A stretch of DNA of 58,025 nt from a virus. Lineage: Duplodnaviria > Heunggongvirae > Uroviricota > Caudoviricetes. Position 1 is the first letter of the stretch; every line of letters starts with the position of its first letter. Shown here piece by piece: positions 1 through 15,995 of this stretch. Under the pieces are notes generated by a model. It had not been told where the DNA came from, ran no database searches, and worked only from the letters and a program-made list of their open reading frames with translations. The stretch spans positions 1-58,025 of the IMG/VR virus record IMGVR_UViG_2859821903_000003, one strand, 5' to 3'. The position numbers and the translations under genes are program-made.

Positions 1-1461
1 ATGAAAAAATTACTGCGTCTTTTTTTCCCGCTCTCGCTGCGGGTACGTTTTCTGTTGGCAACCGCTGCGGTAGTACTGGTGCTTTCGCTTGCCTACGGAA
101 TGGTCGCGCTGATCGGTTATAGCGTCAGTTTCGATAAAACTACGTTTCGGCTGTTACGTGGCGAGAGCAATCTGTTCTATACCCTTGCGAAGTGGGAAAA
201 CAATAAGTTGCATGTCGAGTTACCCGAAAATATCGACAAGCAAAGCCCCACCATGACGCTAATTTATGATGAGAACGGGCAGCTTTTATGGGCGCAACGT
301 GACGTGCCCTGGCTGATGAAGATGATCCAGCCTGACTGGCTGAAATCGAATGGTTTTCATGAAATTGAAGCGGATGTTAACGATACCAGCCTCTTGCTGA
401 GTGGAGATCATTCGATACAGCAACAGTTGCAGGAAGTGCGGGAAGATGATGACGACGCGGAGATGACCCACTCGGTGGCAGTAAACGTCTACCCGGCAAC
501 ATCGCGGATGCCAAAATTAACCATTGTGGTGGTGGATACCATTCCGGTGGAGCTAAAAAGTTCCTATATGGTCTGGAGCTGGTTTATCTATGTGCTCTCA
601 GCCAATCTGCTGTTAGTGATCCCGCTGCTGTGGGTCGCCGCCTGGTGGAGTTTACGCCCCATCGAAGCCCTGGCAAAAGAAGTCCGCGAACTGGAAGAAC
701 ATAACCGCGAATTGCTCAATCCAGCCACAACGCGAGAACTGACCAGTCTGGTACGAAACCTGAACCGATTGTTAAAAAGTGAACGCGAACGTTACGACAA
801 ATACCGTACGACGCTCACCGACCTGACCCATAGTCTGAAAACGCCACTGGCGGTGCTGCAAAGTACGCTGCGTTCTCTGCGTAGTGAAAAGATGAGCGTC
901 AGTGATGCTGAGCCGGTAATGCTGGAGCAAATCAGCCGCATTTCACAGCAAATTGGCTACTACCTGCATCGTGCCAGTATGCGCGGCGGGACATTGCTCA
1001 GCCGCGAGCTGCATCCGGTCGCCCCACTGCTGGACAATCTCACCTCAGCGCTGAACAAAGTGTATCAACGCAAAGGGGTCAATATCTCTCTCGATATTTC
1101 GCCAGAGATCAGCTTTGTCGGTGAGCAGAACGATTTTGTCGAGGTGATGGGCAACGTGCTGGATAATGCCTGTAAATATTGCCTCGAGTTTGTCGAAATT
1201 TCTGCAAGGCAAACCGACGAGCATCTCTATATTGTGGTCGAGGATGATGGCCCCGGTATTCCATTAAGCAAGCGAGAGGTCATTTTCGACCGTGGTCAAC
1301 GGGTTGATACTTTACGCCCTGGGCAAGGTGTAGGGCTGGCGGTAGCCCGCGAAATCACCGAGCAATATGAGGGTAAAATCGTCGCCGGAGAGAGCATGCT
1401 GGGCGGTGCGCGGATGGAGGTGATTTTTGGTCGCCAGCATTCTGCGCCGAAAGATGAATAA
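1..1461 (+). CDS. phoQ: Sensor histidine kinase PhoQ (complete, 486 aa)
   Basis: Full-length translation matches E. coli PhoQ from memory ([19 protein letters not shown]..., HAMP, histidine kinase and ATPase motifs). Confidence 0.95.
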
Positions 1462-2195
1462 ATATGTCCTTTTATCACCATATCAAGACAAACCATTGAT
1501 TTAATTAAATAATCTGCACTGAAAAAAGTGCCAAAAATCGCAAATTGACTACACCATTAACTACACCGTTCGGTGCACCGTATGAAACAACGTGGAACAA
1601 ATAGACACAAGAAATATACAGGCGGATCATCTTTCCAGGGGAAGCGCACCAATTCATGAGGGGCGTTAATGTCTATATGGGGATCCCCACCTACCGGAAT
1701 TTTTTTCCGGTTAAACGTTAATCAGGCTGGTGGGCTTTACCTGTTCGGTAGGTGTTATGATTATCGTAATACCTTTCCCCAATGGGGTAAAAGCATCAAC
1801 CGTAACGAAAGTCGTTATGGTTGCCACTGATACCCCCAATTTGGGTATCACGAGTAAGCCCCAAAATCTGGGTGTTACTCTTACTACCCAAACTACGGGT
1901 AGTTTCCGTAGTTTCATGGTCGAGTTGCAGATCTGCAACTCCCCCATTAACCACAGGCGAATTTCCGCCTTCGGTCATTCCTTAATCATCTGCGTAATCA
2001 TAATGATTATTCAGCAAGCGCAATTTTGCGCTTTGCTTAAAGTTCAGCGAGTTACCGCGCCGACTTCCTCAAATTGAGGTTTCCGAAAATATCAGCGGGT
2101 TAGCGATTAAGCTGATCATTAATTAAACTGCGAAAATGTCGTAGTTGTGAGGGGTGTAGCCAACCCATTTTTGGGCCGTCGGGAATATCAACCAG

Positions 2196-2477
2196 TTACC
2201 GCCGCAACCGCTCCGGCTTCTTCCAGTGGTACGTTATTTTCTCCTTCTCCCGATACATCTCCACGCGGCGACGGTAGGCCTGCAACTCAAGAACTCTGGT
2301 TCGTATGTTGCGCATATCCACGCCATTAAGTTCTATACCATCACGGCGCATCACCTCAGCAACAACACGCGCATAGTTTTCGGCTGTCACGCTGTCCGGC
2401 TGCGTGGCCTGTTCGTCAGCCTGCTGGCTGATTCCGGCAACGCGGCGGATTAATCCCGTTATTTCGGCTTCTGTCAT
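2196..2477 (-). CDS. Hypothetical protein (93 aa), last gene of packaging operon
   Basis: ORF directly downstream of TerL on the same strand; no recognisable motif. Confidence 0.35.
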   Translation of the reverse strand: MTEAEITGLIRRVAGISQQADEQATQPDSVTAENYARVVAEVMRRDGIELNGVDMRNIRTRVLELQAYRRRVEMYREKEKITYHWKKPERLRR

Positions 2478-2490
2478 GCTGCTGACCTCA

Positions 2491-4152
2491 TTACACCCCG
2501 CTAAATTCTTCCAGTTTCTGGCGGTGGCTGTCGCTTATATCAAAAGCAAAATCCTCATGCTCTGCCTGGAATGTACCAAACGCCATCAGCGCCGCCACGC
2601 TCGGGTCTATCTTGTTCGGTGATTTTTTCTTGTTCGGCTTGATATTGGCGTTCGCGTCACTCTGCATCACGACGTTACTCATCGACCAGGACAACACCGG
2701 ATCGCCACGATGCACAATCACCCTGCGGTTAACAAAAACTTCGAACGATTTCGCCGCCGGACTTAATCTGAGGTAGGTTTGCGGGAACGGCTCCACCTCA
2801 AAACCTGCCCCCTGTAATTGCGTTCTGAGATGCGTGGCGTTCCACGTATCAAAGCCCACCAGCCTGATATTAAATTTCTCCGCGTCCTGCATGATGTCAT
2901 CTCTGATCCGGTCGTAATCAATGCAGTCGCCAGGCGTTGTGCGTATCCAGCCTGCTTTAGCCCACTGACGATAGATGGCGCGGTTTTTATTGGCGGGGTT
3001 CTGTAGCTGGAACTCCGGCAGATAATGACGGGAAACCAGCATAATGGTTTTACCTACCGGAAAGGCATAGCACACGCTGGAAATATCGCTTGTGGATGAT
3101 AAATCCAGCCCCGCGTAACACTCCTAGCCGTGTAAATCTTCCTCCGTGAACGTTCCGGCACACTCAGCCCATGCGCCGTTACCCATCCACGGGGTAGTCC
3201 CCTGACACCAGATATTAAATCGCTTTGTCATCATCTCCACCCACTGCGACGGAATACCCCGCGCTTTCTGGATGGTTGAGGCCAGTTTTTCACGATCCAC
3301 GGAAACATCAATATTAGGGTTCGCCTTTATCCACATCGCCGGATCATCAACCTCGTTTTCGTCGTCCAGTTCGTAAATCAGTACAAAAATTGAATCGTTA
3401 ACCTCTTCGCCGTCCAGGATCTGGCAGCAATAATCATAGTGCTGCTTACAGGCTGAAACGACGTTGCTGCCTGATGTGGTAATGGCAAATAACAGCCCTT
3501 CGGGACGTGCGCCCATCCCCAGCTCAAGCGCGGAATAAACGCCGTTATCGGGGTGCAAGTGGTATTCGTCCACGATGGAAAGGCTGGGGTTTGTTCCCTC
3601 GATGGTTGCCGCTTTTGCTGCCAGCGGCTTTAACAGGCTGTTGCTTTTCGGGTGTATCACCTTATGCGCCTGAATATTCACCCGCCTGCGTAACGGTCGG
3701 GATAAAAGGCACATCTGACGCGCATCATCAAAGACGATCCGCGCCTGGTCACGGCTCACCGCTGCGGTGTAGATATCCTGCTGACCGTTCTCCATAATCA
3801 GAAACCAGTTAGCCAGAATCGCGGCGGTCGTTGATTTCGCATTTTTGCGCGGCACTTCGATAAAGGCGCTCGTATATTTGCGCCGTCCGGTGGCCTTAAC
3901 CTTAAAGCCGAGGATGCACGCAAAGGCGAACTGCTGCCACGGCTCCAGCTCAATGGGTCTGCCACGCATCGGCCCTTTTACGTGCGGGCACACCCTGGAA
4001 AAGGCAATAAACCGATCCACAACCTCACGATCGAACGTGTAAAGGGGGCTTTTAAGGTCTGAAAAGTACCGTTTAACGGCCTGTTTCAGCCGTTTACAGG
4101 CCGGAATTTTGCCCGTTTTTACGTCTTCTGCGTACTTATTCCAGGCGGTCAA
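2491..4152 (-). pseudogene. Terminase large subunit, interrupted by in-frame amber (TAG) at 3124-3126
   Basis: ORF 3124-4152 is the terminase ATPase-like N-terminal part and ORF 2491-3075 the nuclease-like C-terminal part; both are in the same frame, separated only by one TAG. Confidence 0.75.
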
Positions 4153-4492
4153 GCTCGTCCTCTTCTTCTGTTTCCGGTGGATTTTTACGGCGGCTTATCG
4201 GGTCAAAACCGAGCAAGGAGGCCATTTTTATCATCACTCTTTCCGCGTCGGATTTCGCGCTTAATGTGGGGTTTCTGCTCTCTCCGCCCTGACTGTTAAC
4301 AATGCTGAACCCGCGCGCCGCAAGGTCTGCGACGGCTTTCCGGTATATCGAGTAATTGACGCAATACAGTTCCAGATTGCTCCAGTCGGCGGGAGTCAGG
4401 TCACCCCGTTCCGCAAGCTGCCGCGATTTTTCCCGCCACTGCTTCACGGCGATATCATCCAGGTAGGCGGGGGCTTTCGGTGGTCTTGCCAT
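4136..4492 (-). CDS. Terminase small subunit (P27-family-like)
   Basis: 118 aa ORF overlapping the TerL start, located after the HNH gene; typical HNH-TerS-TerL arrangement. Confidence 0.65.
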   Translation of the reverse strand: MARPPKAPAYLDDIAVKQWREKSRQLAERGDLTPADWSNLELYCVNYSIYRKAVADLAARGFSIVNSQGGESRNPTLSAKSDAERVMIKMASLLGFDPISRRKNPPETEEEDELDRLE

Positions 4493-4781
4493 GCTTATTT
4501 TTTCGCCAGATTATTTTTCAAAAAATTCCCGTGCATAAAAATTTGAGGAGGCGGTCGGTGCCCGGCGGGGTCGGGTTTGTCCTGAAAACGCCCCCCACCC
4601 CGTCATACAGCCTCATCAGCGATTGCGGAAACATTCCATAACCTCGCGGTCACGGTCGGTTAATCGCTTCGCTGTGATGCGTTCTGCGCGTCCTGACGCT
4701 TTATCTTTATGCCCTGTTTCCTGTGTCTTCCATGCGTCACGCTGCCTTATAAGTCCACGGATAAGGCGGTTTTGTTCCCGC

Positions 4782-5222
4782 TCATTCATCAGCGTCATAC
4801 ATCCAGTTATTGCGGTTAGCGGCCCGTTCTTCCTCTTCACGAAATCCACCTGCGGCACGCTTACTTTTTGTTGCCGGATCAAGCCATTTCGTTTTCTGGT
4901 TATGGCACGCCTGACACAATGGTTGATGGTTCCATTCGGGCCAGAAGAGAACATCATCACCGCCATTAATCGGGATAATGTGATCCACCACCACGGCGGG
5001 CGTATATATCCCCTTCTCAAGGCATCGCACGCATAACGGGTTTTTACTCAGATACATGGCGCGGTATTTGTCCCACTGTCTGGAGTACCCACGCGCGCGG
5101 CGGTGTCCTCGTCTGGCATCCTCTGCACGCCATGCCGCCCGCCTGTGCTCCTCACACTTGCCGGACTTCACGCGCCTGTTACAGCCTGGTTCTGTGCATC
5201 GTCTTAATGGTTGCCACGGCAT
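4782..5222 (-). CDS. Phage-associated HNH endonuclease
   Basis: Motif DHIIPINGG...NHQPLCQACHNQKT; position next to the terminase genes as in cos-packaging phages. Confidence 0.75.
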   Translation of the reverse strand: MPWQPLRRCTEPGCNRRVKSGKCEEHRRAAWRAEDARRGHRRARGYSRQWDKYRAMYLSKNPLCVRCLEKGIYTPAVVVDHIIPINGGDDVLFWPEWNHQPLCQACHNQKTKWLDPATKSKRAAGGFREEEERAANRNNWMYDADE

Positions 5223-5518
5223 CAGTACACCCCCACATCACGGTAAGCCGTCCAGAGTACACCAATCGTCATGGGTACGCGTGTTTTTGCGTTATCCGCG
5301 ACAATCTGGCGATTTTCATACAGGTGAGCGATAAACATCATGCAGCCAATCTTTATGGCTGGCGTGAACTCCAGCCCGTCATCAAAGCGCCTGCCTATGT
5401 GTATCTGGCACGCCTCAAGCGATGCGGCAATGTATCCGCTGATTAACTGGTCTTCCTCGTCGCCATCGATGCGGCAATGGAGTTTCACTTCTTCCAGGGT
5501 GATAAGTTCTTCTGTCAT
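5222..5518 (-). CDS. Head-tail connector / DNA-packaging protein (gp6-like)
   Basis: 98 aa ORF in conserved position after the head-closure gene; translationally coupled. Confidence 0.45.
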   Translation of the reverse strand: MTEELITLEEVKLHCRIDGDEEDQLISGYIAASLEACQIHIGRRFDDGLEFTPAIKIGCMMFIAHLYENRQIVADNAKTRVPMTIGVLWTAYRDVGVY

Positions 5519-5895
5519 TTTTCCGCGCCCTCACGACAAAGAATTTCAAGGCGTGTCCTGGCGGCATCCGGCAGCGGCTGCCCGATGATATTCAGTACAC
5601 GCCCCGCCAGCGGCCCCGTATTGACCTTTATCCGGCTGGTGGCGTTGATGTCCTTCCTGTAGCGTATCCATACCCTTACCGTTCCAGTCGCCAGTTCTGC
5701 ACCCGATGAAATGGCCTCCTTGCTGCTGATCATGTTCACGCTTGCCCAGAGTGTGTGACCGTCCACCCACGTTTCGAGTATTTCGCCCGTCATGGCTCTG
5801 GTCTGTTTCAGGGTCTGAATCGTTACCCTGTCACGCAGTCGCCCTATGTTCATTCCGGTTTTTCTCCCTCGCTGATTTTTACTTCCTGTTTCCAT
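5515..5895 (-). CDS. Head closure / head-tail adaptor protein
   Basis: 126 aa ORF between portal and connector genes; family assignment by position and size. Confidence 0.45.
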   Translation of the reverse strand: METGSKNQRGRKTGMNIGRLRDRVTIQTLKQTRAMTGEILETWVDGHTLWASVNMISSKEAISSGAELATGTVRVWIRYRKDINATSRIKVNTGPLAGRVLNIIGQPLPDAARTRLEILCREGAEK

Positions 5896-7059
5896 GCCTG
5901 GCTGAACTCATCACCACCATCACGCGGGGACAGCCCTTCACGTTCGCGGGCTTCGTTCGGGCACATAACGCCGGATTTGATGCCGCGTTCATAGGTGGCA
6001 AAGCGTTCGCCAGGTGTGGCCCGTAACAGGTCCGCGCTGTCAAACTCCACCTGATACCGGATACCAGGTACAGGCGAGGCCACCAGCAGGGCGTTTTTTA
6101 TCTGCTTCTCAAAGTTCGCCAGCCACGGGCGCATCGTCATGGTGAGAAATGCGCGGCTTGCCTCGCTGAAATTGCTGTAGGTGCTGTTGCTGTATTCCTG
6201 CAAAAAAATCGGCGAGACGTTGAACATTCGGGCGATGTCTTCAATGGTGAAGCGACGGGAGGCCAGCCATTCAGCATCCTGATTACTCATGCCCAGCTGC
6301 TGATAGCTCATACCCCCTTCAAGGATGGGCGTTTTTCCGGCGTTTCTGGCCCCTTTGTAGCGTTCCAGCGCGGCTAATGCCTGTTTGCCCTTCACGCCGT
6401 CCAGCCATTCGCCTGACGTGATAACCCCTGCCGCCATCATGCCATCACGCATCACGCTCGCGCCGTGGCGTTGTTGGGCCAGCCCAAGCCCCAGCGATTC
6501 GCGGCAGATGGTTACAGGTGAGCGCCCCATAAAACCGTCATCCGTGGAGTAACGAAGGTGGAGAACCTCCCACGGTAAATAGTTGCGGGTGTTTCCGGTG
6601 TAGGCGTCAGTGATGCAGTAGCGCCAGTTATGCTCACCTGTCTGCTCAACGTTCACCGACTGCGGCGGGTAAGGATGCAAAGCGACCGGAAAACCATCAC
6701 GCCCCCACTGAATCACCGCATAAGCATTACCGTTTAACAGGCAGTGGCGGATCATCATTCGCTTAAACTGGTAGGGGGTTTGCCATGCGTTCGGGCGCTC
6801 GTTGAGGATGTGATCGACCGGATGAGAATCAAGCCACTCGCGGGCCTCCTTCCCCTTCTCATTGCGTACCAGGTACAGGTAACACGGCATGGTAGCCACC
6901 GCCTCAGAGATGACCGTCACGGCGTTCATGACGGCGGGCAGTGATTCCGCTGTCCCCGATGATACGTACTCACCCGCCCCGTGTTCGATGTGCCAGCCAG
7001 CGCCATAAACTCATCAAGCGTCATGCTGCGCTGCTCTTTTTTTCTTCTGAAAGGCCACA
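5850..7059 (-). pseudogene. HK97-family portal protein, probable frameshift near the 5' end
   Basis: ATG at 7059 is coupled to the protease stop and reads MWPFRRKKEQRSMTLDEF... for about 44 codons, then stops; the 359 aa portal-like body (6929 down to 5850) continues in another frame. Confidence 0.55.
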
Positions 7060-7061
7060 TA

Positions 7062-7634
7062 TCACACCCCCGCTAAATCCGCCCACCAGCGGCGATTATC
7101 CGCACGCGGCATTTTTTCGGGGTGCTGCTCATACAGGGAACGGCGGGCCAGCTCCACGTCGGAATCAGGGTAAGCCGGTACGGATGTAACGGTAATTTCG
7201 TACAGTTCCGCCACCAGCACGGTGCGCACGCATGGATCTGTTGTGGTATCCCATACATCCTTACGGGAACGAAAGCCAAAGCTCATGCCGGATATATCAC
7301 CTCGTTTAACCAGTTCGATAACGTCGCGCCCTGTACTGGTATCCGGTGGGGTCAGTTCAAAGCGTAACCCTGTTTCGTCCTCTTCCAGTTTCAGCGTGCC
7401 GGAACGGGTGCGCCCCAGTAACATGCTGTGGTCATGCTCATACAGGCCGCGAACGTCATTACCCGCCGCAAGCCATTCAGTAAACGCCCCCCGCTGGAAT
7501 TTTTCGTAAAACTCACCCCATAACAGTTCTGAAAGCTTATCCCAGCGAACAATGTAGCCCGTCAGCGTACCGGCTCCGCTGGTGGTGATTTCCGATGACC
7601 GGATTTCCATACTCTTCATAATTTTTTCACCCAT
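7062..7634 (-). CDS. Prohead maturation protease (HK97 family)
   Basis: 190 aa ORF between capsid and portal genes; size and position typical of S78-type prohead protease. Confidence 0.7.
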   Translation of the reverse strand: MGEKIMKSMEIRSSEITTSGAGTLTGYIVRWDKLSELLWGEFYEKFQRGAFTEWLAAGNDVRGLYEHDHSMLLGRTRSGTLKLEEDETGLRFELTPPDTSTGRDVIELVKRGDISGMSFGFRSRKDVWDTTTDPCVRTVLVAELYEITVTSVPAYPDSDVELARRSLYEQHPEKMPRADNRRWWADLAGV

Positions 7635-7672
7635 AAAACACTAAAGGGGCTTTTAAGCCCTTCTGTATGCTA

Positions 7673-8830
7673 TTAATCGTCGTCCTGTGGCAGTTCCAGA
7701 ATCTTGATCGCGTTCGAATCCACCACGCCACCGCCTAAATATTTCTGCGCGAAAATTTTGATGAAGCCCGGCTCTGTGAGGTTGTCCGGTCTGGTGCGAA
7801 CACCTGTTTCGTGATCAACAATGTAGTAACCGCGTTTGAAGTCACCCAGGGCAATAACGTTATCCGGCATAAACTCCAGATATTCGACCGGAAGGCCCAG
7901 CAACGTATCAGGATCACCCGCCTGTAAACGGTCACGCCAGATGTAATCACCGTTCGCGTTCTTCACCTTCTGGAGTTTTGCCTCCGTCGTGGAGTTAACC
8001 ACCCAGACCGCGTTTTTGCGGTATTTTTTACGTAATGCAAATTTCAGGTCGATCAGCGGGTCCGCAGATGTCCACGCCAGAGATTCGGAAGGTTTAATTA
8101 CCTGCAACGTACCAAAATCACGCTCTTTGTCGTTCTTCTCTGCACGGGGTACGGATAAAAAGCCTTTTGCTTTTTTGTCACCGTCGCCCACAACCAGATC
8201 GCTTTCTTCGGTTTCCGTGAAGGTGTCGCCAATCTCGCCCGTCAGCCATGAAAGGATGTCCACATCGGAAAAATCCACGATTTCCTGCGTGGTGCGCGGG
8301 TACGCATAGACCGGATACAGCTTAATGCTCACCTCGTTAATCTGCGGGGTGCTGGTCTGTTCGCGTGCCTTACCCTCTTCACCGTGGTTAACGGTCGCAC
8401 CGCCAGCGGAAACAAGCTGCTTAAACTCGTTGCTGCTGATTTTCTTCACGGTACAGATGCGGCGCATGGTGGATTCATCCGTCAGCATTCGCATGATTTC
8501 GGTGTTCAGTTCGGGGATAACGGTATAACCACCATCAGCGGGAACGCCTGTACTCAATGCGCGGGTTTCACCTGTCAGAATGTAGTGACGTAGTTCGGCG
8601 GGGTCAGTGGTCTGGCTGTTTTTGCCTGGTTTACTGCGCTCTTCGTCAGCAACGGCCTCAAGGCGGGAGATGTCTTTATCGAGTGATTCAGCTTTAGCGC
8701 GTAATTCGTCAAATTTTGCGCCCTCAGCATCGTTAAGGCTGCGGTTTTCTTTTTCCGCGTTCTCCAGCATGTCGCGCATCTGATTTTTAATGGCGGTTTT
8801 CTGCTGGCGTAATTCGATTATTCTCGGCAT
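7673..8830 (-). CDS. Major capsid protein (HK97 fold family); start probably MPRIIELRQQ
   Basis: About 385 aa with N-terminal coiled-coil delta domain then capsid-like body; first gene of the head operon. Confidence 0.75.
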   Translation of the reverse strand: MPRIIELRQQKTAIKNQMRDMLENAEKENRSLNDAEGAKFDELRAKAESLDKDISRLEAVADEERSKPGKNSQTTDPAELRHYILTGETRALSTGVPADGGYTVIPELNTEIMRMLTDESTMRRICTVKKISSNEFKQLVSAGGATVNHGEEGKAREQTSTPQINEVSIKLYPVYAYPRTTQEIVDFSDVDILSWLTGEIGDTFTETEESDLVVGDGDKKAKGFLSVPRAEKNDKERDFGTLQVIKPSESLAWTSADPLIDLKFALRKKYRKNAVWVVNSTTEAKLQKVKNANGDYIWRDRLQAGDPDTLLGLPVEYLEFMPDNVIALGDFKRGYYIVDHETGVRTRPDNLTEPGFIKIFAQKYLGGGVVDSNAIKILELPQDDD

Positions 8831-9042
8831 AAAAAAAGTCCTGCAGTTAAGTAAGGAACTCCAGGACGCGGCAAACACTCAACCGTTTTTCATAAGGAAA
8901 TCAGCAATCGCACCGATCGTTTTCCCGCCTGGTAATGAATATTGGCGAGCACATTAACAGGCGGGAAAGTGGCCCCAGCGTCCTGGCACCACGGGCGAGA
9001 ATAATCATGATTCAGTTCGGGTAAAATATGCCGATCCGGTCA

Positions 9043-9072
9043 GCGAACAACGTGGAACAACCACGAACAAAT
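9043..9072 (-). promoter_or_regulatory. Array of 10-bp-phased TTGTTC hexamers upstream of the capsid operon
   Basis: Minus-strand reading TTGTTCGTGGTTGTTCCACGTTGTTC; related arrays at 1584-1611, 14425-14478 and 15811-15838. Confidence 0.45.
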
Positions 9073-9117
9073 AATTTACAAAACATGACAAAAAGCCGGA
9101 TTGCTCCGGCTGTGTGA

Positions 9118-9399
9118 TTATCTGTCCTGGTAATTTCGCCATATTTCATCACCAGCACCATCCATACCCATTTCGGCATAAGTGCGATCGACCGCCTTTT
9201 TCAGGTCTCCGTAATTATCCGGCGGCTCCGGTGGCCTCTGTGCCTTCCTGGAACATTCCAGCCGTCGCATCGTGATGTGATGCCGTTCCTTGTCTGTCTC
9301 CACCAGTTGCATGACTTCACCCCATCGCGCCGACGCTCTCCGGTAAAAGCCTTTCGCCTCCAGTTCTTCCGCTATGCGGTCATGTACCATCGTCCCCAC
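9118..9399 (-). CDS. PerC-family-like transcriptional regulator (tentative)
   Basis: 93 aa; segment AEELEAKGFYRRASARWGEVM resembles the PerC/Pch family as I recall it; not verified. Confidence 0.4.
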   Translation of the reverse strand: MGTMVHDRIAEELEAKGFYRRASARWGEVMQLVETDKERHHITMRRLECSRKAQRPPEPPDNYGDLKKAVDRTYAEMGMDGAGDEIWRNYQDR

Positions 9400-9402
9400 C
9401 CC

Positions 9403-9813
9403 TCAGAACGGAATATCATCACCGTAAGGGTCATCGCCTCCCGCTGGTGGCTGATTACCCTGTGTGCCTGTGGTCTTGCGTCGGCTCCCACCAGGACGTG
9501 CCGCACGGGCACTGATTACGCTGTCTGCAATAACCTGATAACCCTGCCGCGTTTCCCCGTTCTGTCCGGTCCACTGGCTGACCTGCATCGTGCCGGATAC
9601 GCTGGCAACGTCGCCTTTTTGATGTTTAGCCAGGAAGTCGGCCTGCTTACCAAATGCGATGACCGATAGCCATAACGTCGCCTGTCCATCCTGAGCCTGG
9701 CTGCATGGCAGCGATACCGCCATACGCGCCAGCGTCATCGGTGTACCCTTGCTGGTCTGTTTTACCTGCGGGTCGTCCACCAGCCGCCCGTAAGCTGCAA
9801 TTTGTGCTGTCAT
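9403..9813 (-). CDS. ssb: Single-stranded DNA-binding protein
   Basis: OB-fold-like N-terminus, Gly/Pro-rich linker and acidic C-terminal tail ending DDIPF. Confidence 0.8.
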   Translation of the reverse strand: MTAQIAAYGRLVDDPQVKQTSKGTPMTLARMAVSLPCSQAQDGQATLWLSVIAFGKQADFLAKHQKGDVASVSGTMQVSQWTGQNGETRQGYQVIADSVISARAARPGGSRRKTTGTQGNQPPAGGDDPYGDDIPF

Positions 9814-9822
9814 ATTGCCACC

Positions 9823-10128
9823 TCAGTGAAGCGATCCGGCGTTGTTCTTTTTCATCTCTTCCATCATTTTTTCAGTGAGCATTACGCACTGAAAACCCAT
9901 GTTTTTGATGTCCACGGGCTTCATGCCTTTATCAGTGGATATCACAGGAAGAATATCCTGATACACATCGCGGTCAGGGTAACTAAGCACACAAAGCGCC
10001 CATGATGCCACGGGTGAGGATCCTTCGTCTGTTTCAACCCACCAGCCTGGTGTAGCTGCGCTTATTTGCTGAATCGTGATCCGTCCGTTGTGCTTGTAAA
10101 GTTTTTCACCAAATTTTGGTTCGCTCAT
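9823..10128 (-). CDS. Hypothetical island protein (101 aa)
   Basis: ORF in the replication-proximal operon; no motif recognised. Confidence 0.35.
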   Translation of the reverse strand: MSEPKFGEKLYKHNGRITIQQISAATPGWWVETDEGSSPVASWALCVLSYPDRDVYQDILPVISTDKGMKPVDIKNMGFQCVMLTEKMMEEMKKNNAGSLH

Positions 10129-10406
10129 GATTCCAACTCTCCGGTTTTAACGTTGATTGTTGTTACCTGTTCCGCTTCGGCAATCTCCCGTTCTGTCAGC
10201 GTGGCAAAGTTTGCCGCCGCCGTGGTCATGAATGCGCTTATCAGGTCGGGATGTTCCTTCGCGTATCCTTCCCGCGTGTGGCGGTCTATCGTTCTGATTG
10301 CCACCTTTAAGGTGTGCTCAGTCATGTCTAACGCTTTATATTTTGGCTCTGTTCTGTCTCTGCGTTTTTGGGTCATTTCTCGCAACCTCTCACTTTTTCG
10401 CCTCAC
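10125..10406 (-). CDS. Hypothetical island protein (start uncertain, possibly the internal Met at 10325)
   Basis: ORF whose 5' portion overlaps the iteron array. Confidence 0.3.
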   Translation of the reverse strand: MRRKSERLREMTQKRRDRTEPKYKALDMTEHTLKVAIRTIDRHTREGYAKEHPDLISAFMTTAAANFATLTEREIAEAEQVTTINVKTGELES

Positions 10407-10578
10407 TTTTTCAAGCGTCTCACTTCGTCGCAGTTGGGATTTTCGGTTTTTCTATGTGTATGTTTCATAAGTATTTTTTTACCCCTCACTTTTGAGGATG
10501 TATACAGGTCGAAAAGTGAGGGGGAGCGGGCTAATTTTGGCCCTCTTTCTATCCCCTCGCTTTTGCTCCTCACTTTTA
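10379..10578. repeat. Iteron array, CTCACTTTT-type repeats (at least 6 copies, one inverted); candidate island origin of replication
   Basis: Copies at 10379, 10393, 10410, 10486, 10570, a CTCGCTTTT variant at 10553 and an inverted copy at 10511-10524, immediately 3' of the replication gene. Confidence 0.5.
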
Positions 10579-11976
10579 TAGCGGCGCTACATCATCCCCA
10601 TCGATACGAATAACCCCATCTTTTTCCAGCTTGTACAGCCAGCGCCGGAAGTTTTTCATTTCATACCCCAGCTTTTTCATGTCATCACGTAACATCTGGA
10701 TCGTGCACTTGTCGCCGTTCTGTGTGCGTGAACGGATGCACCCCCATAGCGCGGTATGGTTTTCCGTCTTGTTCCCTGCCTCCTCGATGCGCTCCAGTTC
10801 AACAGGAGGGCGCGGATCATCCACCACCACCAGCGACGTGATTAATTCACCGTCAGCGTCGGTAAAAAGCTCCACCACGCGTAAGTCATATGCGGCTTCT
10901 TTGAGTTCCTCCGCGTCCTTCATTTTGGTGCATGAGATAACCAGCGCTTCGCTTCCTGCGTCCTCCCTGCGTATCCGGTATTCAGCATCCAGCGAAGCAC
11001 GAAATGCACTGGAACCGCGCGCGCCTTTCGTCTCATCCTTGCCGGAATGGTGAACCACCAGCACCGTGGCCCCTGTGCGTCGTTTCAGTTCGTCACAACC
11101 ACGGATAAACGCCCCCATATCACGGGAATCATTTTCATCATTCCCACCAAAGCAACGCGCCAGCGTATCCAGAATAATCATGCGTACAGGTTTACCCGTT
11201 TCCCGCTCCACCTGACGGGCAGCGATAACCATTTCATCAACATCAAGCGGGGCAGCCGGAAAGATGGGGCGGTTTACCAGATACAGATTTTTCACCTGCT
11301 CATCGTGCACAACCTCCCAGGCTTTTACACGACGCGGAACACCTATACCGCCTTCACCAACCACATAGAGAACCGCACCATGTGCAACCCTGCGGCCTCC
11401 CCACTGGCGACCAGTGGCAACATGGCACGCCCACGATCCGGCAAGGAATGATTTATAGGACCCGCTAGCCCCGTATATGCTGCATAGCGATACCGCCGGA
11501 ATAATCCCCTTAACCACGTAATCCAGTTGCGTGTCGTATCCGGTAGATCCAACGCTCATCGGTAGCGTGGTTTTTCGCTGGTGGTTTTTTTCTTCCGCCG
11601 GCTCTTTCCCGCGCACCCGTTCCAGGTATTCGCGCCAGTTCTCCCGCATATGGCTGTGCATCCCTTCGGGGTAATAATTCGCATCAGTTACACCCGCCGC
11701 CGCCAGCTTGTGCGCAATGGCATTAATATTTGATGGCCTGATGTGGCCTGCCTTGTACAGCCGGACACAATAGCGCCCCTCGTCGATGATTCTCAGGTCT
11801 GCCAGTTCATCCAGTTGATCATCAGCCAGCACAACGGGAGGCACATTATCGCCAGCCAGTCGCCCGTCCTGTTCCTGCCACTGTTTCGCATGTGCCCAGG
11901 CATCACTACCCGCAAAAATAATGGCTTCGGTCATCTTGTCGTAAGGCTGTTTTTTTAAGTTCGGTGCGCTTTTCAT
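10576..11976 (-). CDS. Replication protein, RecA-like/AAA helicase family
   Basis: 466 aa; Walker A GASGSYKS, Walker B-like LVVHHSGKDE; adjacent to iterons. Confidence 0.65.
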   Translation of the reverse strand: MKSAPNLKKQPYDKMTEAIIFAGSDAWAHAKQWQEQDGRLAGDNVPPVVLADDQLDELADLRIIDEGRYCVRLYKAGHIRPSNINAIAHKLAAAGVTDANYYPEGMHSHMRENWREYLERVRGKEPAEEKNHQRKTTLPMSVGSTGYDTQLDYVVKGIIPAVSLCSIYGASGSYKSFLAGSWACHVATGRQWGGRRVAHGAVLYVVGEGGIGVPRRVKAWEVVHDEQVKNLYLVNRPIFPAAPLDVDEMVIAARQVERETGKPVRMIILDTLARCFGGNDENDSRDMGAFIRGCDELKRRTGATVLVVHHSGKDETKGARGSSAFRASLDAEYRIRREDAGSEALVISCTKMKDAEELKEAAYDLRVVELFTDADGELITSLVVVDDPRPPVELERIEEAGNKTENHTALWGCIRSRTQNGDKCTIQMLRDDMKKLGYEMKNFRRWLYKLEKDGVIRIDGDDVAPL

Positions 11977-12272
11977 TTCTTGCCCCTGAATCCGTTAATC
12001 ATGGTTTTCAGCTTCTGGATGTTTGCCCGTGCCCTGGCGTTGCTGGTGGGCACGTTATGCGGCGCGGTCTGTACCAGAGAAAAATCACGCCGGAACTGAT
12101 AAACAGGCATCACGCAATCATATTCGTAACCTTCACGGCGGTAGGTTACGCGCCGTTCTTCCACGCCCTTAATCATTACCGTGCCGCCGTAATGGTCGCG
12201 GTAAATATCACCGCGCGTAAATTTAGGGTGAGTGTTGCCACTGGCAGTTAAGCCAGAATATTTAAGTTTCAT
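11973..12272 (-). CDS. Hypothetical island protein (99 aa)
   Basis: ORF coupled to the replication gene start. Confidence 0.35.
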   Translation of the reverse strand: MKLKYSGLTASGNTHPKFTRGDIYRDHYGGTVMIKGVEERRVTYRREGYEYDCVMPVYQFRRDFSLVQTAPHNVPTSNARARANIQKLKTMINGFRGKK

Positions 12273-12277
12273 TATTT

Positions 12278-12523
12278 TTATTCTCCGGTGTGCTGTTCTT
12301 TATATCCGTCGTGCAATAGATCTATTTCTTGCAGTTCCATTATTACAGGCTCAAGAAGCGTTATTAATGCCGTGGCAATTCTTGATTTTTGTTTGTCGCG
12401 TTCATTGTCGCCAAGTGTTTCAAGCCATATGCGCAATATTTCCAGCATGTTTTCACTGTGAGAAAGTGCAAGAAATGCGCGGTCTATTGTTTCGTGGTAA
12501 ATATCACGCATATTAATCCCCAT
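12278..12523 (-). CDS. Hypothetical island protein (81 aa)
   Basis: ORF in the leftward early operon. Confidence 0.35.
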   Translation of the reverse strand: MGINMRDIYHETIDRAFLALSHSENMLEILRIWLETLGDNERDKQKSRIATALITLLEPVIMELQEIDLLHDGYKEQHTGE

Positions 12524-12725
12524 CCGTCGTTTTTCTTAAAATAACCTCTGTCACGAAATCAGCATAATCGGCGGCGATATTCAGTACATCAAGCCCGTTG
12601 ATTTATATTCTCTCGTGGAAAGTAAGAAAAAAGCCGCTCTAATAAGTTCTGGCATTGACGAAAGCGCATCAGCCGCACCATCAGGAACGCCGGAAAATTC
12701 CTGTTTCAGGGAATTAAAACGATCA

Positions 12726-12989
12726 TCACGCATAACCCCCCCCATTTTCACAATCGGCAACAAGAATATTTTTAGCGTCATTCAGTGACCGCGTTGCGAT
12801 GTATCGGATACATTCCAGGGCGAACTGTGTCCGGTCTTTCTGTTCTTCTCCCTGCGCAAGCTCTGCCGTGCATTCAATATCAATAAGCGCGTGCATCAGC
12901 GTAGTGAGCGCGGCGGCTGCTGCGTCCGGTGTGGTTTTATTGTGCATAGGTTTCTCCCTGGCGGATTTTTGCAGCGAATACAGCAACAC
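12726..12989 (-). CDS. Hypothetical island protein
   Basis: ORF in the leftward early operon; start uncertain. Confidence 0.25.
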   Translation of the reverse strand: MLLYSLQKSAREKPMHNKTTPDAAAAALTTLMHALIDIECTAELAQGEEQKDRTQFALECIRYIATRSLNDAKNILVADCENGGGYA

Positions 12990-13140
12990 AACCGGACGGG
13001 CAACGGCTACGCGCTTCGCGTTCCGTCCAGGCGGTTACGTGGATGATTTGAGATTCTCCGGCACTCAGGGCCAGAAAACGCCACACAAAGGCCGTTTGTG
13101 TGTGTACAAGGTGTGGTATATGATTTACGGCAACCATAAC
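12937..13140 (-). CDS. Hypothetical first gene of leftward operon (start taken as MVAVNH)
   Basis: The longer ORF would overlap the operator palindromes, so the internal start is preferred. Confidence 0.25.
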   Translation of the reverse strand, partial: VMVAVNHIPHLVHTQTAFVWRFLALSAGESQIIHVTAWTEREARSRCPSGCVAVFAAKIRQGETYAQ

Positions 13141-13227
13141 GGCTCCTAGTTTACGTTGTTGGTTAGAAGCCCTGCGAGTGGTAATGACACTTGCGGGGCT
13201 TTGCTTTTTTAAGTGCTCTTGTGTTAA

Positions 13228-13272
13228 GGTGGCCACCTAACAATGGAAAGGCTAATTCAATAGGTGGCCACT
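13228..13272. promoter_or_regulatory. Twin palindromic operators AGGTGGCCAC (13228-13237 and 13263-13272) in a divergent control region
   Basis: Two copies of a 10-bp palindrome with 35 bp centre-to-centre spacing, between the divergent leftward operon and the RHH gene. Confidence 0.5.
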
Positions 13273-13331
13273 TGTCAACAATCAAACGCGATAAAAGCCC
13301 TAAAGGGGACGGGCAATCCCCACAATTCAGA

Positions 13332-13463
13332 ATGCGAATTTCTCCAGAGCTAAAAGAGCAATTCGACAAAGAAGCACAGAGCGACGGCATAAGCCTAGCC
13401 AACTGGCTTAAAGAGTTGGGGCGCACTGAACTAAAGCGGCGCGGCATAGAACCCAAAGGATAA
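13332..13463 (+). CDS. Small ribbon-helix-helix (Arc/CopG-like) DNA-binding protein, candidate island repressor
   Basis: 43 aa from MRISPELKEQFDKEAQSDGISLANWLKELGR; RHH-like pattern; divergent from the replication operon. Confidence 0.4.
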   Translation: MRISPELKEQFDKEAQSDGISLANWLKELGRTELKRRGIEPKG

Positions 13464-13505
13464 AAACTATCAGCGCCGTGGTGTGAGGTATTACGGCGCA
13501 TTGCT

Positions 13506-13694
13506 ATGCAGGACAACACAATGACCGATAAAGAATTGACCAAAACATTATCACCGGCACGGAAAAGACGGCGCAGAAAGATAGAGCATGAATCAGAAAG
13601 ATTCGCGCCATGTGCTTTTGCCCTTGAGCAATTCCTTAAAGAGTATAGGGAAAAGCGCTCATTGCAGGTATGGCAACGAACTGAACCAGACTGA
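13506..13694 (+). CDS. Hypothetical small basic protein
   Basis: 62 aa ORF downstream of the RHH gene on the same strand; terminator follows. Confidence 0.25.
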   Translation: MQDNTMTDKELTKTLSPARKRRRRKIEHESERFAPCAFALEQFLKEYREKRSLQVWQRTEPD

Positions 13695-13789
13695 TTGCAT
13701 TGCCCACCAGCCTGATAGCGGCTATCATCCCCGTGCTTATGTTTGGGATCACATACACATAAGGCGCAGCGGGTTATCTGTTCAGAAAG

Positions 13790-13817
13790 GCGGCTCCATT
13801 TCGGGGCCGCTTTTTTT
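13790..13817 (+). terminator. Rho-independent terminator of the rightward RHH transcript
   Basis: GCGGC stem / 11-nt loop / GCCGC followed by T7. Confidence 0.5.
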
Positions 13818-13963
13818 ATGCCTGAAAAACCCCAATTTTGTGGTTTTCCAGTCTCACCAGGGCGAACAAATCCCCGCCCACGTTCTGGCGTATATTCAAT
13901 CTTCATGGTTATAGCTCTGTGTTCAGATGATTGATGTGTGGCGGCTGCGTGCCGCCAGCGTGA

Positions 13964-14152
13964 TTAATGAACTGCCTTGCAGCTATCCTTCCAGGCCAGA
14001 ACCTCGGATAAAGACCAGCCAACGGAACGACCGCCAAGTTTACGACGTGATGGGAATTGTCCGGCCTTTTCCAGGCGGTAGCGACACGTACGGCTAAGGC
14101 CGGTTAGTTTTTCGCATTCTTTTTCACGTATAAACCGATCAGTGCTTAACAC
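13964..14152 (-). CDS. alpA: AlpA-family phage transcriptional regulator / excisionase-like protein
   Basis: 62 aa; LSRTCRYRLEKAGQFPSRRKLGGRSVGWSLSEVLAW matches the AlpA pattern; next to int. Confidence 0.75.
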   Translation of the reverse strand: MLSTDRFIREKECEKLTGLSRTCRYRLEKAGQFPSRRKLGGRSVGWSLSEVLAWKDSCKAVH

Positions 14153-14424
14153 TATTGCCCCCTTTCGTTTCTTAAAGAGTCATCAGGTGTCTTATTGTGT
14201 CGTATTGTTCCCGCTAGAGTGATGAATGGCAAATACTGAGGATGTATGATTTACAGAAAATGAAAAAGTAAGAATAAAATCTTTTAAATTCATGTTAATA
14301 CAAAGGCATAAAATATTGTTCCATGCCTTTTTTCTCGCTCTTTAAAGAGTGATTCGCTAGTGTATAAAAAACCAGTAACACATTAAAAATCAGCTACTTA
14401 TAAATCCGTACGCTTTTTCGCCTC

Positions 14425-14478
14425 TTGTTCGTAGTTGTTCCACATTGTTGCTCATTGTTGCACGTTGTATCTGTTCGC
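14425..14478 (+). promoter_or_regulatory. Array of five or more 10-bp-phased TTGTTC/TTGTTG hexamers between int and alpA
   Basis: TTGTTCGTAGTTGTTCCACATTGTTGCTCATTGTTGCACGTTGTAT in AT-rich intergenic DNA upstream of alpA. Confidence 0.45.
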
Positions 14479-14516
14479 ATATCCAGTATGCGCATACTGA
14501 AAAAACACGAAAAAAA

Positions 14517-15746
14517 TTATTTTCTTCTGGCTACTGGTAGCGTGGTTACGTTTTCATGTGTTCCCGCCAGTATCCCTAACCGCTCCGTCCACATATCCAG
14601 CGCATTGCGTTTCGCATCCAGATAACGGGAATGATTATAAACTCGCTGCATTCCTGGCATCTGGTGGCCTGTAAGCTGCTCCACGACATGCGGATCAACG
14701 CCTAAATCGTTCAGCATGGTTGTAAAGGTGCGCCGGATGTCATGCAGTGACCAGTGAGGGTGTTTAAGCCTCCTGTGCGCTAATCTGCCGTACTGCGACA
14801 CGCTGGTTTCCTGTTTCACTTCCCCCAGCAATAAGCCCGTGTGCCTGTTCTGCTCCACCAGCTGCGTGACGAACGGCATTATCGCTTCCGGTATGGGCCG
14901 GAATATGGCTACCTTCGTTTTGCTGTGCTCCTTCGGAACAGTCCAGAGCATTTCGGTAAAATCCCACTCGCCGATCTCCGATAACCTAAGTTCGACCGTC
15001 CGGCATCCGAACACAATCAGGAGGCGGATTAGCGCGATGTAGTAGGGGGAGAATATTTTTTTGTCCAGTGCCTGCAATAATTCGCCAAGTTCTTTGTTGC
15101 TTAAGACACGCTCGCTTATATCCGGTTTTTTCCCAACGTCCGCCACACTCATATCATCAAGAACGTTGCTGATTGCATAGCGCCGCTTCCGGCAGAACTT
15201 AAGCGCCTGCTTGCATGTCTGTAGCAGGAACCCGGCGGAAACAGGGGCTTGCTTTGCCACCCGATCAAAACAGGCCAGCCAGTGCCGTAGCTCGCATTTA
15301 TCCAGCGGCATAGGGCCAATGTGCTGTATTACGTGATTATTTAGCCGCTTTTTCAGTGGGTCATAATCCACACGGTTTTCCTTTGCGTACGACTCAAGCC
15401 AGTAGGTGAGCGCATCACCAACCGTTACCGGCTTTAACGCTTCCTGTACGGTGTAATTCATCTCATGACGTGGATTTTTCCCCTCAGCCAGCCATGCGCG
15501 ACACTGGGCGGCTTTTTCCCTGGCTGATTTCAGACTCAGATCAGGATAATTTCCCAGCTTAATGCGTTCCGGTGGTGCCCCCCTTCCCGTTCCGGCCCTG
15601 TAAGTGAAATACCAGGTCAATTTCCCTGATGTTAAATATTTCACGCTCAAGTTTCCGCCATCACTATAAAACGTGTTTTTCTCCGCTGGCTTACCATGAA
15701 GTTTCCTTAGCAAGGTATCGCTCAGTTTGTTCATTGCTCTGCTCAC
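14517..15746 (-). CDS. int: Tyrosine integrase, P4-type
   Basis: 409 aa; N-terminal arm-binding-like domain (KLSDTLLRKL...SDGGNLSVKY), catalytic HDIRRTF and LLGHQ...RVYNHSRY. Confidence 0.85.
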   Translation of the reverse strand: MSRAMNKLSDTLLRKLHGKPAEKNTFYSDGGNLSVKYLTSGKLTWYFTYRAGTGRGAPPERIKLGNYPDLSLKSAREKAAQCRAWLAEGKNPRHEMNYTVQEALKPVTVGDALTYWLESYAKENRVDYDPLKKRLNNHVIQHIGPMPLDKCELRHWLACFDRVAKQAPVSAGFLLQTCKQALKFCRKRRYAISNVLDDMSVADVGKKPDISERVLSNKELGELLQALDKKIFSPYYIALIRLLIVFGCRTVELRLSEIGEWDFTEMLWTVPKEHSKTKVAIFRPIPEAIMPFVTQLVEQNRHTGLLLGEVKQETSVSQYGRLAHRRLKHPHWSLHDIRRTFTTMLNDLGVDPHVVEQLTGHQMPGMQRVYNHSRYLDAKRNALDMWTERLGILAGTHENVTTLPVARRK

Positions 15747-15995
15747 GTTTTACCCCCTCTTTACGAAAAAGTGACTACACCAGTGACTACACCGATCGTT
15801 GCACAAAGGGCTACAACGTGAAACAAGCTGGAACAAGGAAAATCACAAATCTGTTGATAATCAAAAACATAATGCACAACCTGAAACATTATGAAACGGC
15901 AAAAAACACTAATTGATAAAATATGCCCATACTTCACGCATTACGTTAAGCATCCGTTATAATCGGTTGCAGATACCAGCCTGTGGATGCTTAAC

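Follow-up and report, generated by a model that had tools for sequence, protein, structure and literature searches.

Boundaries and gene content of the island

The stretch of DNA analysed here (58,025 nucleotides, referred to as the window) contains an island located between phoQ and roxA. Alignment to K-12, in which the phoQ|roxA junction is empty, shows the whole unit as one single insertion: the K-12 alignment stops at position 1466 and restarts at 15919 with an overlap of 7 bp, placing the junctions at 1466|1467 and 15925|15926. The island thus spans positions 1467-15925 (minus strand; 14,459 bp with the right core copy counted in), is flanked on both sides by the 7-bp repeat AAATATG, and ends at att junctions that lie directly past int and directly past the gene after TerL. 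A preliminary description, made from the sequence alone, had recognised a satellite island at this locus, which the alignment bears out; the ends that it gave, 1546 and 15840, are ~80 bp inside the true junctions and coincide with internal 76-nt repeats, where no att site is present. The G+C content of the island is 51.2%, compared with 50.9% in the flanking core genes.

All of the named genes, from int through TerL, are encoded on the minus strand (Table 1). The leftward series of int, alpA, helicase, SSB, capsid, protease, portal, connector, HNH, TerS and TerL read in the preliminary description was recovered in full by Pfam searches, including the HK97 capsid, S78 protease, portal and P27-type TerS families that it had proposed for profile searching; a PerC-family gene, a head-closure gene and a homologue of gene 1792 were missing from its list. 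The iterons that it had placed with the helicase are also present, as a 206-bp segment immediately following the helicase gene on its 3' side holds seven of the 13 AAGYGAG matches in the whole window (P about 4e-16). The divergent RHH regulator of that description corresponds to one of the short plus-strand ORFs (about 13332-13463) of the ambiguous stretch downstream of alpA, and its assignment is hinted at by an Arc-like PHROG match (E=1.4e-6) and by a Pfam HicB score of 19.6 bits, below the 21-bit cutoff.

Table 1. Features of the island and their positions in the window.
Feature	Position	Strand	Basis and remarks
Left AAATATG core copy (attL crossover region)	1460..1466		K-12 alignment; directly 3' of phoQ stop codon (1459-1461)
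Left near-terminal 76-nt imperfect direct repeat	1542-1617	plus	GACTACACC doublet and AACGTGGAACAA; partner 15768-15843
Final packaging-block gene, 93 aa, phrog_1561	2196..2477	minus	86% identical to EcCIEDL933 counterpart
TerL, ATPase and nuclease domains	2491-4152	minus	Pfam; broken at codon 343
TerS, P27/Terminase_4 family	4136-4492	minus	Pfam
60-aa ORF between HNH and TerS	4616..4798	minus	100% identical to EcCIEDL933 ORF
HNH endonuclease of HNH-TerS-TerL packaging system	4782-5222	minus	Pfam
gp6-like head-tail connector	5222-5518	minus	Pfam
Head closure (head-completion) protein	5515-5853	minus	Pfam
Portal	5850-7060	minus	Pfam
Prohead serine protease (Peptidase_S78)	7062-7634	minus	Pfam
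HK97-fold major capsid protein, 385 aa	7673-8830	minus	Pfam
PerC-capsid intergenic region	9044..9111	minus	Terminator-like hairpin (9094-9111), then 10-bp-phased repeats with AACGTGGAACAA (9044-9090)
PerC-family transcriptional activator homologue	9118..9390	minus	Pfam; annotated in sibling islands too
SSB (single-stranded DNA-binding protein)	9403-9813	minus	Pfam
phrog_27268 small gene	9823-10128	minus	PHROGs
phrog_1231 small gene	10125-10376	minus	PHROGs
Putative replication origin	10386..10577		Seven AAGYGAG (6 direct, 1 inverted) around a 57-bp stretch, 65% A+T; directly 3' of helicase gene
RepA-family (AAA_25) replicative helicase, 466 aa	10576-11976	minus	Pfam
DUF4222 protein	11973..12272	minus	Pfam
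Small accessory gene block as a whole	12278..13134	minus	
phrog_2196 small accessory gene	12278-12523	minus	PHROGs
phrog_2512 gene, split in two around variable poly-C tract	12581-12781 and 12726-12989	minus	
Icd-like protein	about 12937-13134	minus	
Ambiguous stretch downstream of alpA	13163..13906		Minus-strand 247-aa ORF (annotated in EDL933) or short plus-strand ORFs
AlpA regulator, 62 aa	13964-14152	minus	Pfam
int-alpA intergenic 10-bp-phased repeats, upstream of alpA	14435..14468		TTGTTGCACA, 3.4 copies, holding two AACGTGRAACAA-like sites
P4-type tyrosine integrase	14517-15746	minus	Pfam Arm-DNA-bind_3, Phage_int_M, Phage_integrase
Right near-terminal 76-nt imperfect repeat	15768-15843	plus	Partner 1542-1617
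Right AAATATG core copy (attR)	15919..15925		K-12 homology restarts there

As the preliminary description had noted, tail, lysis and tail-fibre genes are absent: searches of the island ORFs against Pfam, PHROGs and NCBIfam gave no match to tail, fibre, holin or lysin families. The closest tail genes begin at about 20.86 kb, past roxA, pepT, potA and potB, and are part of a separate prophage.

Assignment to the capsid-forming PICIs

Descriptions of capsid-forming PICIs (cf-PICIs) date from 2022-23, a solved capsid structure is available, and the SatelliteFinder tally stands at 969 cf-PICIs, in about 13% of Enterobacteriaceae genomes. Possession of their own capsid, protease, portal, connector, head closure and TerL genes sets them apart from PICIs in SatelliteFinder (PMC10085698). 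Every sequence-level characteristic published for the class (10.1101/2025.02.11.637232; PMC10085698) was found in the island. Its length between the K-12-defined junctions lies within the range of about 10-18 kb; a terminal integrase is combined with an AlpA regulation module and a replication module with a putative iteron origin; none of the 11 core genes is missing; and the head and packaging genes (8 of 8) score above Pfam cutoffs in canonical order, TerL being there in TAG-interrupted form. The cf-PICI papers name two proteins that join head and tail, adaptor and connector, and we equate the head closure protein with one of them. Similarity to genuine phages is distant, as in other cf-PICIs: only four phage records match the island DNA, all at no more than 78% identity and 14% coverage, the top phage-database matches are 15-16.5-kb entities at 58-66% amino-acid identity, and the capsid protein reaches at most about 40% identity to those of full-size phages.

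The element type and locus are already known, matching EcCIEDL933, the prototype cf-PICI of E. coli O157:H7 EDL933 (Alqurainy et al., 10.1101/2022.09.08.507074; He et al., 10.1101/2025.02.11.637232), which occupies the same phoQ|roxA site in the EDL933 chromosome with the same gene order and orientation. Identity to its proteins is 100% for AlpA, 93% for Int, 98.5% for SSB, 98.4% for the capsid protein, 99.2% for the portal, 99% for the connector, 94.6% for head closure, 99.3% for HNH, 99.2% for TerS, 98% for TerL and 100% for the homologue of gene 1792, and packaging identity (94.6-100%) compares with 50-90% within the family. The capsid protein differs by 6 residues from PDB 9GYI, deposited by its authors as the EcCIEDL933 capsid, and keeps the published SxGxxAD N-terminal motif as STGVPAD; its next-best solved match is the RcGTA capsid (E about 2e-46). 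By gene order, the 60-aa ORF between HNH and TerS is the homologue of EcCIEDL933 gene 1792. The two islands differ in the replication protein, which is of the RepA/AAA_25 type with 466 aa here and of the DUF927 type with 710 aa in EcCIEDL933, only the N-terminal 122 aa being alignable (66%). Between alpA and DUF4222, the small genes likewise differ or are only weakly similar, the island is smaller (14.46 kb vs about 15.5 kb), and, unlike EcCIEDL933, it has an amber codon in TerL.

Several other elements share parts of this organization. The phoQ|roxA island of FORC_042 (NZ_CP025318.1) is 99.2% identical in DNA over window positions 1-12785 and shares the RepA-type replication module and origin, but its TerL and portal are intact and its accessory region at 12.8-13.8 kb is different. 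Islands at the tqsA site in O157 and O26 carry a nearly identical packaging module, but their replication gene is of another kind, a primase type. Classical Gram-negative PICIs (EcCICFT073, EcCIED1a) share the int-alpA-rep left half, with AlpA-dependent induction according to the literature, but have no capsid, portal, connector or TerL genes and are packaged into helper-made capsids. HK97-type phages and the Rhodobacter capsulatus GTA share the HK97-fold capsid protein, S78 protease, HK97-type portal and HNH-assisted terminase, and the phages differ from the island in having tail and lysis modules and T=7 heads.

We therefore consider it highly probable that the island is a cf-PICI, an allelic variant of EcCIEDL933 that its P4-type integrase has inserted at the phoQ 3' end, with a genuine TerL amber and a portal frameshift that is likely an artefact. 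This agrees with the class named in the preliminary description. The island itself adds little that is new, its type and locus being those of the prototype, and it serves as a clean positive control in that a cf-PICI was recognisable to a reader of the sequence only.

Other satellite types share the P4-type integrase, AlpA and the Icd-like gene, which are common to P4-like satellites and classical PICIs. Such elements remodel helper capsids without building their own, whereas this island has genes of its own for the capsid protein, protease, portal, connector, head closure protein and TerL. A classical PICI of the EcCICFT073 type is rejected, as portal, connector, head closure and TerL are 'forbidden' in the SatelliteFinder PICI model. 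We likewise reject a P4-like satellite, given the island's own capsid and terminase genes and the absence of P4 Sid-, Psu- or Delta-type matches and of alpha primase families among its ORFs in profile searches; an origin of either kind has almost no probability left. A complete or defective HK97-like prophage is rejected because no tail or lysis genes lie inside the att junctions. The head and packaging genes might instead be left over from a prophage and stand beside an unrelated int/alpA/rep island. The packaging module is indeed modular, as the tqsA-site copies in O157 and O26 with another replication gene illustrate. However, comparison with K-12 shows the unit from int to TerL as one insertion with a single junction pair, 160 complete E. 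coli genomes carry it intact, no phage record exceeds 78% DNA similarity or 14% coverage of the island, and in EDL933 the same architecture has been shown experimentally to act as one satellite. We thus regard a stray prophage fragment, an objection foreseen in the preliminary description together with that of tail or lysis genes belonging to the element, as very improbable.

The TerL amber codon and the portal frameshift

The preliminary description had reported a TerL amber codon and a portal frameshift and suggested that this copy may be immobile. Both are present in the window as given. The amber is a TAG at 3124-3126 (codon 343, inside the nuclease domain), where intact copies have CAG. 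The same 342-aa TerL fragment is found in independent assemblies from other sequencing runs, namely L009 (99.94% identity) and L010 (a contig detected in 8 samples). Since it recurs in this way, the amber is real and not an assembly error. The portal lesion, a 1-bp deletion (C5 -> C4, about 6977-6980), disrupts the first 44 codons. The window and L009, in which the portal is intact, differ at eight positions, seven of them 1-bp G/C-homopolymer deletions in the window, and contig CP026839.1 is the only one in the searched protein collection to have the truncated portal; for these reasons the frameshift is very probably a long-read homopolymer error, although it could be a true mutation private to the source strain. 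Pseudogene calls that rest on G/C homopolymers in the source assembly, CP026839.1, are not to be relied on.

The suggestion of immobility therefore stands with respect to TerL and most likely falls with respect to the portal. When each of the packaging-module genes of EcCIEDL933 was mutated singly, transfer was abolished for all except gene 1792, the mutation of which severely reduced it, and replication was unaffected (10.1101/2022.09.08.507074). On the basis of these results the TerL amber should abolish packaging, although the island could stay mobile if the amber were read through at a low level or if another cf-PICI complemented the defect. A fully decayed, immobile remnant, in which the amber, the frameshift and the other small deletions were all real products of reductive decay in an IS-rich host, would fit both lesions and the heavily decayed surroundings, with their nested IS elements, split tape-measure gene and truncated J protein. 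We consider it quite unlikely, as the 99.94% identical assembly has an intact portal, the truncated form is confined to one contig, and seven indels against one substitution, nearly all of them 1-bp deletions in G/C runs, are the signature of long-read homopolymer error. With TerL as the site of its single genuine lesion, this cf-PICI would be a naturally occurring TerL-null form of the EcCIEDL933 type that should make capsids without packaging DNA, and it could be used as a natural control in transfer experiments.

Proposed life cycle

AlpA-dependent induction by a helper, small T=4 capsids made by the island and the use of helper tails only have been shown experimentally for EcCIEDL933 and a few other islands only; the EcCIEDL933 capsid is T=4, measures 47.5 nm and is joined to HK106 tails (10.1101/2025.02.11.637232). 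From this work we infer, by homology, the induction, helper identity, capsid size, cos site and life-cycle steps of the present copy. A helper siphophage would switch on alpA, upon which the island would excise and replicate from the iteron origin by means of its own RepA-type helicase and SSB. Expression of capsid protein, protease, portal, head closure and connector would then yield small T=4 heads, into which HNH, TerS and TerL would package island DNA, and helper-made tails would be joined to the filled heads. With TerL cut at codon 343, excision, replication and procapsid building should persist in this copy, while DNA packaging and transfer would not be expected unless TerL were supplied in trans or the amber suppressed.

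Repeats and a shared 12-nt motif

The near-terminal 76-nt repeats may contain recombinase or excisionase binding sites. Every related island examined carries the 12-nt motif AACGTGRAACAA at four conserved sites, two of them ~120 bp in from either end and the others upstream of alpA and of the capsid gene. The motif may be the operator for a single protein of the island, with AlpA and the Int arm-binding domain as the candidates. In that case, excision, alpA auto-activation and transcription of the capsid operon would be coupled, and the motif would offer a concrete DNA target for the cf-PICI induction circuit. A weaker possibility concerns the amber, a change from CCAGG to CTAGG at a Dcm methylation hotspot that is found in two island variants ~1% apart. 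Because of the hotspot and the presence of the amber in both variants, TerL could have been inactivated repeatedly, or the inactive form retained for a long time, in lineages to which the island is of use for something other than transfer, e.g. the PerC-type regulator. Taken jointly, the common operator and this second proposal are tentative and rather doubtful.

No obvious helper phage candidate lies nearby. The adjacent prophage is a degraded remnant in which a stop codon splits the tape-measure gene and the J protein is truncated, and nested IS elements surround the island.

Island boundaries and gene content

Alignment to Escherichia coli K-12 MG1655, in which phoQ and roxA are adjacent, gives gapless matches to positions 1-1466 and 15919-20607 of the window, and the sequence at 1467-15925 (14,459 bp) is a single insertion relative to K-12. 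The two K-12 blocks share a 7-bp overlap, AAATATG, found in the window at 1460-1466 and 15919-15925. The preliminary description had correctly placed an island between phoQ and roxA, and alignment to the empty K-12 junction recovers it as one insertion with this 7-bp junction repeat; the ends proposed there (1546 and 15840) lie about 80 bp short of the true junctions and coincide with imperfect 76-nt direct repeats (1542-1617 and 15768-15843, 74% identical). We rejected these repeats as att sites because both lie within the island according to the K-12 alignment, and the repeat at the junctions is only 7 bp long.

Profile searches place every credible gene of the island on the minus strand, and they agree with the earlier view of a head and packaging module that lacks tail and lysis genes, as no match to tail, fibre, holin or endolysin families was obtained among the island ORFs. 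Scanning the accessory ORFs with PADLOC gave no hits to defence systems, and Rfam families were not matched anywhere within the island. Seven of the 13 AAGYGAG matches in the window fall within 206 bp directly 3' of the helicase gene (P ~4e-16), where they flank a stretch of 65% A+T and form a putative iteron-type origin.

Features of the phoQ/roxA island and insertion sequences in the adjacent remnant. Island genes were assigned by profile search and are listed in their order from the integrase; identities are to the corresponding EcCIEDL933 proteins.
Feature	Position	Strand	Identity	Remarks
phoQ	1-1461			start of the window
P4-type tyrosine integrase (Int)		-	93%	Arm-DNA-bind_3 and Phage_integrase
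AlpA		-	100%
Small or ambiguous ORFs				include an Icd-like protein
DUF4222		-
AAA_25/RepA-family helicase		-		466 aa
Two small genes		-		no assigned function
SSB		-	98.5%
PerC-family regulator	9118-9390	-	88%
Major capsid protein		-	98.4%	HK97 fold
Prohead protease		-	96.8%	S78
Portal		-	99.2%
Head closure protein		-	94.6%
Connector		-	99%	gp6-like
HNH		-	99.3%
60-aa ORF		-	100%
TerS		-	99.2%	Terminase_4 (P27-type)
TerL		-	98%	ATPase and nuclease
93-aa gene		-		no assigned function
AACGTGRAACAA	1589			near the TerL-side end
AACGTGRAACAA	9049			upstream of the capsid gene, just after a terminator-like hairpin
AACGTGRAACAA (two)	14435, 14455			upstream of alpA; opposite orientation, 10-bp phased
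AACGTGRAACAA	15815			near the int-side end
Nested/repeated IS elements	33206-35781
Nested/repeated IS elements	43205-45766
Nested/repeated IS elements	48517-49826
Nested/repeated IS elements	52759-54022

The ORFs at 13163-13906, downstream of alpA, overlap on both strands: a Cys/Ser-rich minus-strand candidate of 247 aa is annotated in EDL933, and the plus-strand candidates are short. A divergent RHH regulator had been proposed for the island; one plus-strand ORF is indeed weakly Arc/HicB-like (RHH-like), but its HicB match lies below the Pfam cutoff and no NCBIfam family matches the ORFs of this region. Substitutions relative to EDL933 cannot discriminate between the strands by codon position, as third positions coincide on both. 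YlcI/YnfO, annotated divergently in sibling islands, has no BLASTP similarity to the candidates. Within a hypothetical gene assigned to phrog_2512, a poly-C tract (12730-12737) is variable in its own right, reading C7, C8 or C9 among islands; C7 gives one gene of 154 aa, and C8 or C9 splits it in two.

The 12-nt motif AACGTGRAACAA, allowing up to one mismatch, has five matches in the 58-kb window, all of them inside the island. The comparison covered islands L001, L002, L005-L007, L011, L012 and L014: the same four positions recur in all six other phoQ/roxA islands examined, EcCIEDL933 included, and the two TerL-side positions are present in the partial sequences of two islands inserted at tqsA. 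The motif may be bound as an operator by AlpA or by the arm-binding domain of Int, and its distribution is a small new observation. Conservation of the PerC-family gene extends to all these cf-PICIs, where it immediately precedes the terminator-like hairpin and the capsid operon; in EHEC, PerC/Pch homologues control LEE and adhesion.

Relationship to EcCIEDL933 and to phages

A megablast search of 5,426 complete E. coli genomes recovered the entire phoQ-island-roxA arrangement in 160 of them, the closest being FORC_042 (99.2% identity over window positions 1-12785). In five sibling islands PGAP predicts the same gene set, with TerL and portal intact in every one. The capsid protein of the window differs at 6 of 385 residues from PDB entry 9GYI, deposited by He et al. 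as the EcCIEDL933 capsid (10.1101/2025.02.11.637232). In EDL933 itself (chromosome NZ_CP008957.1), exactly this roxA/phoQ site is occupied by an island of about 15.5 kb. We identify it as EcCIEDL933 because its capsid protein shares the RefSeq accession WP_001137345.1 with that of L011, a tqsA-site island whose capsid is identical to 9GYI.

The proposal that the island is a cf-PICI is thereby upheld: at the level of sequence it has all the features by which this class is defined in the literature, and its packaging proteins are 94.6-100% identical to those of EcCIEDL933 at the same locus. It is therefore an element of an already described kind, from the prototype's own locus and lineage. Replication is the sole modular difference, EcCIEDL933 having a 710-aa DUF927 protein that can be aligned with the helicase of the window only over its first 122 residues (66% identity).

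In O157:H7 PV15-279 (L011) and O26:H11 11368 (L012), the tqsA site holds a second cf-PICI, nearly identical in its packaging module. Its capsid protein is 100% identical to 9GYI; these islands share the packaging module with the window but have another, primase-type replication gene. They show that modules are shuffled between cf-PICIs integrated at different att sites, which fits the module exchange between satellites already published (PMC10085698).

Derivation of the head genes from a stray prophage fragment was considered as a rival explanation. The phage collection contains only four records that match at the DNA level, none above 78% identity or 14% coverage, and the capsid protein is matched best by "phages" of 15-16.5 kb that are themselves cf-PICI-like, with full-size phages at most about 40% identical. 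We rejected this origin since the island has the defining features of cf-PICIs and its phage matches are only distant. The adjacent prophage was considered as helper or tail donor. From the potB/potC junction (20608) to the end of the window (58025) lies a defective lambdoid remnant, a distinct element with roxA, pepT, potA and potB between it and the island; it retains genes for tail fibres, J, K/I/L/M-type proteins and the tape measure. An in-frame TGA (32689-32691) interrupts the tape-measure gene, J is truncated in its C-terminal receptor-binding domain, and the head, terminase and lysis genes of the reference prophage L008 have no match in the remnant, nested IS3-family elements occupying that position. 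On these grounds the remnant is unlikely to serve as helper, and we rejected it in that role.

LR881103.1 (vB_KppS-Ant), OR544139.1 (Pasteurella Pmp8) and PQ793804.1 (Salmonella As1), three of the best matches to the island capsid in the phage database, have 65.5%, 58.4% and 33.7% amino-acid identity to it, respectively. At 15-16.5 kb they are of cf-PICI size, and they may have been deposited as phages although they are satellites.

A real TerL amber and a probably artefactual portal frameshift

The main gain of this analysis is that the two lesions previously noted in the island can be told apart. TerL codon 343 is TAG (3124-3126), CAG in FORC_042, and the break falls within the nuclease domain. 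The coding-strand change, CCAGG to CTAGG, is a C-to-T transition at the inner cytosine of a Dcm site, a classic hotspot of 5-methylcytosine deamination yielding CAG-to-TAG ambers. At least 6-7 contigs encode a 342-aa N-terminal fragment identical to that of the window. They include Logan assemblies of other sequencing runs: L009, an independent assembly that matches the window at 99.94% identity over 14.1 kb, and L010, which diverges by about 1% and whose contig is seen in eight samples. Because the fragment recurs in assemblies of other runs, the amber is real. The 201-bp segment around it does not occur in identical form in any complete RefSeq E. coli genome.

The portal frameshift, in which a C5 run reads C4 at about 6977 and breaks the first 44 codons, is found in no complete genome. 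Of the eight differences between the window and L009, one is a substitution and seven are single-base deletions in the window, each within a G/C homopolymer (1638, 1777, 6977, 7658, 10553, 12594 and 12736); at six of the seven, every reference island aligned there (2-5 of five) sides with L009. Such a ratio is characteristic of unpolished long-read assemblies and not of mutation. In the protein collection searched, the truncated 359-aa portal occurs on a single contig, CP026839.1, evidently the source of the window. Given the seven homopolymer deletions against one substitution, and the restriction of the truncated portal to that contig, the frameshift is probably an assembly artefact and the portal intact in the organism. 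The core-gene flanks have no indels relative to K-12 in 6.15 kb, with only 18 G/C runs of at least four there versus 77 in the island. The seven deletions suggest systematic homopolymer errors in CP026839.1, and other frameshifts in the window may also be artefacts.

Predicted mobilization and phenotype

By analogy with EcCIEDL933, for which HK106 or HK446 was the helper in experiments, a helper siphophage would turn on alpA, and the island would excise and replicate. Its capsid protein, protease and portal would build heads like those of the prototype (T=4, 47.5 nm; 10.1101/2025.02.11.637232), HNH, TerS and TerL would package island DNA, and filled heads would join helper tails. Tail specificity is set by the adaptor and connector proteins of the island (10.1101/2025.02.11.637232); since the window and EcCIEDL933 share 99% identity in the connector and 94.6% in the head closure protein, tails of the HK106 type are the predicted partners.

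When each packaging-module gene of EcCIEDL933 was mutated singly, every mutation abolished transfer except that of gene 1792, to which the 60-aa ORF corresponds by gene numbering, and replication was unaffected (10.1101/2022.09.08.507074). Because these mutants lose transfer and keep replication, the amber allele should replicate and make procapsids, and should not be transferred without complementation or suppression; with a supE-type suppressor, TerL codon 343 would again be read as the wild-type glutamine.

Insertion sequences in the prophage remnant

Rfam matches in 20608-58025 comprise a tRNA cluster (37641-37890), STnc100, sok and IS009 RNAs. A 1,310-bp IS3-family element with ALIL frameshift pseudoknots is present in three copies, one inside another IS and one itself split. 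Such an IS load is typical of Shigella-like genomes; together with the 4.27-Mb chromosome, it suggests a lineage of this kind.
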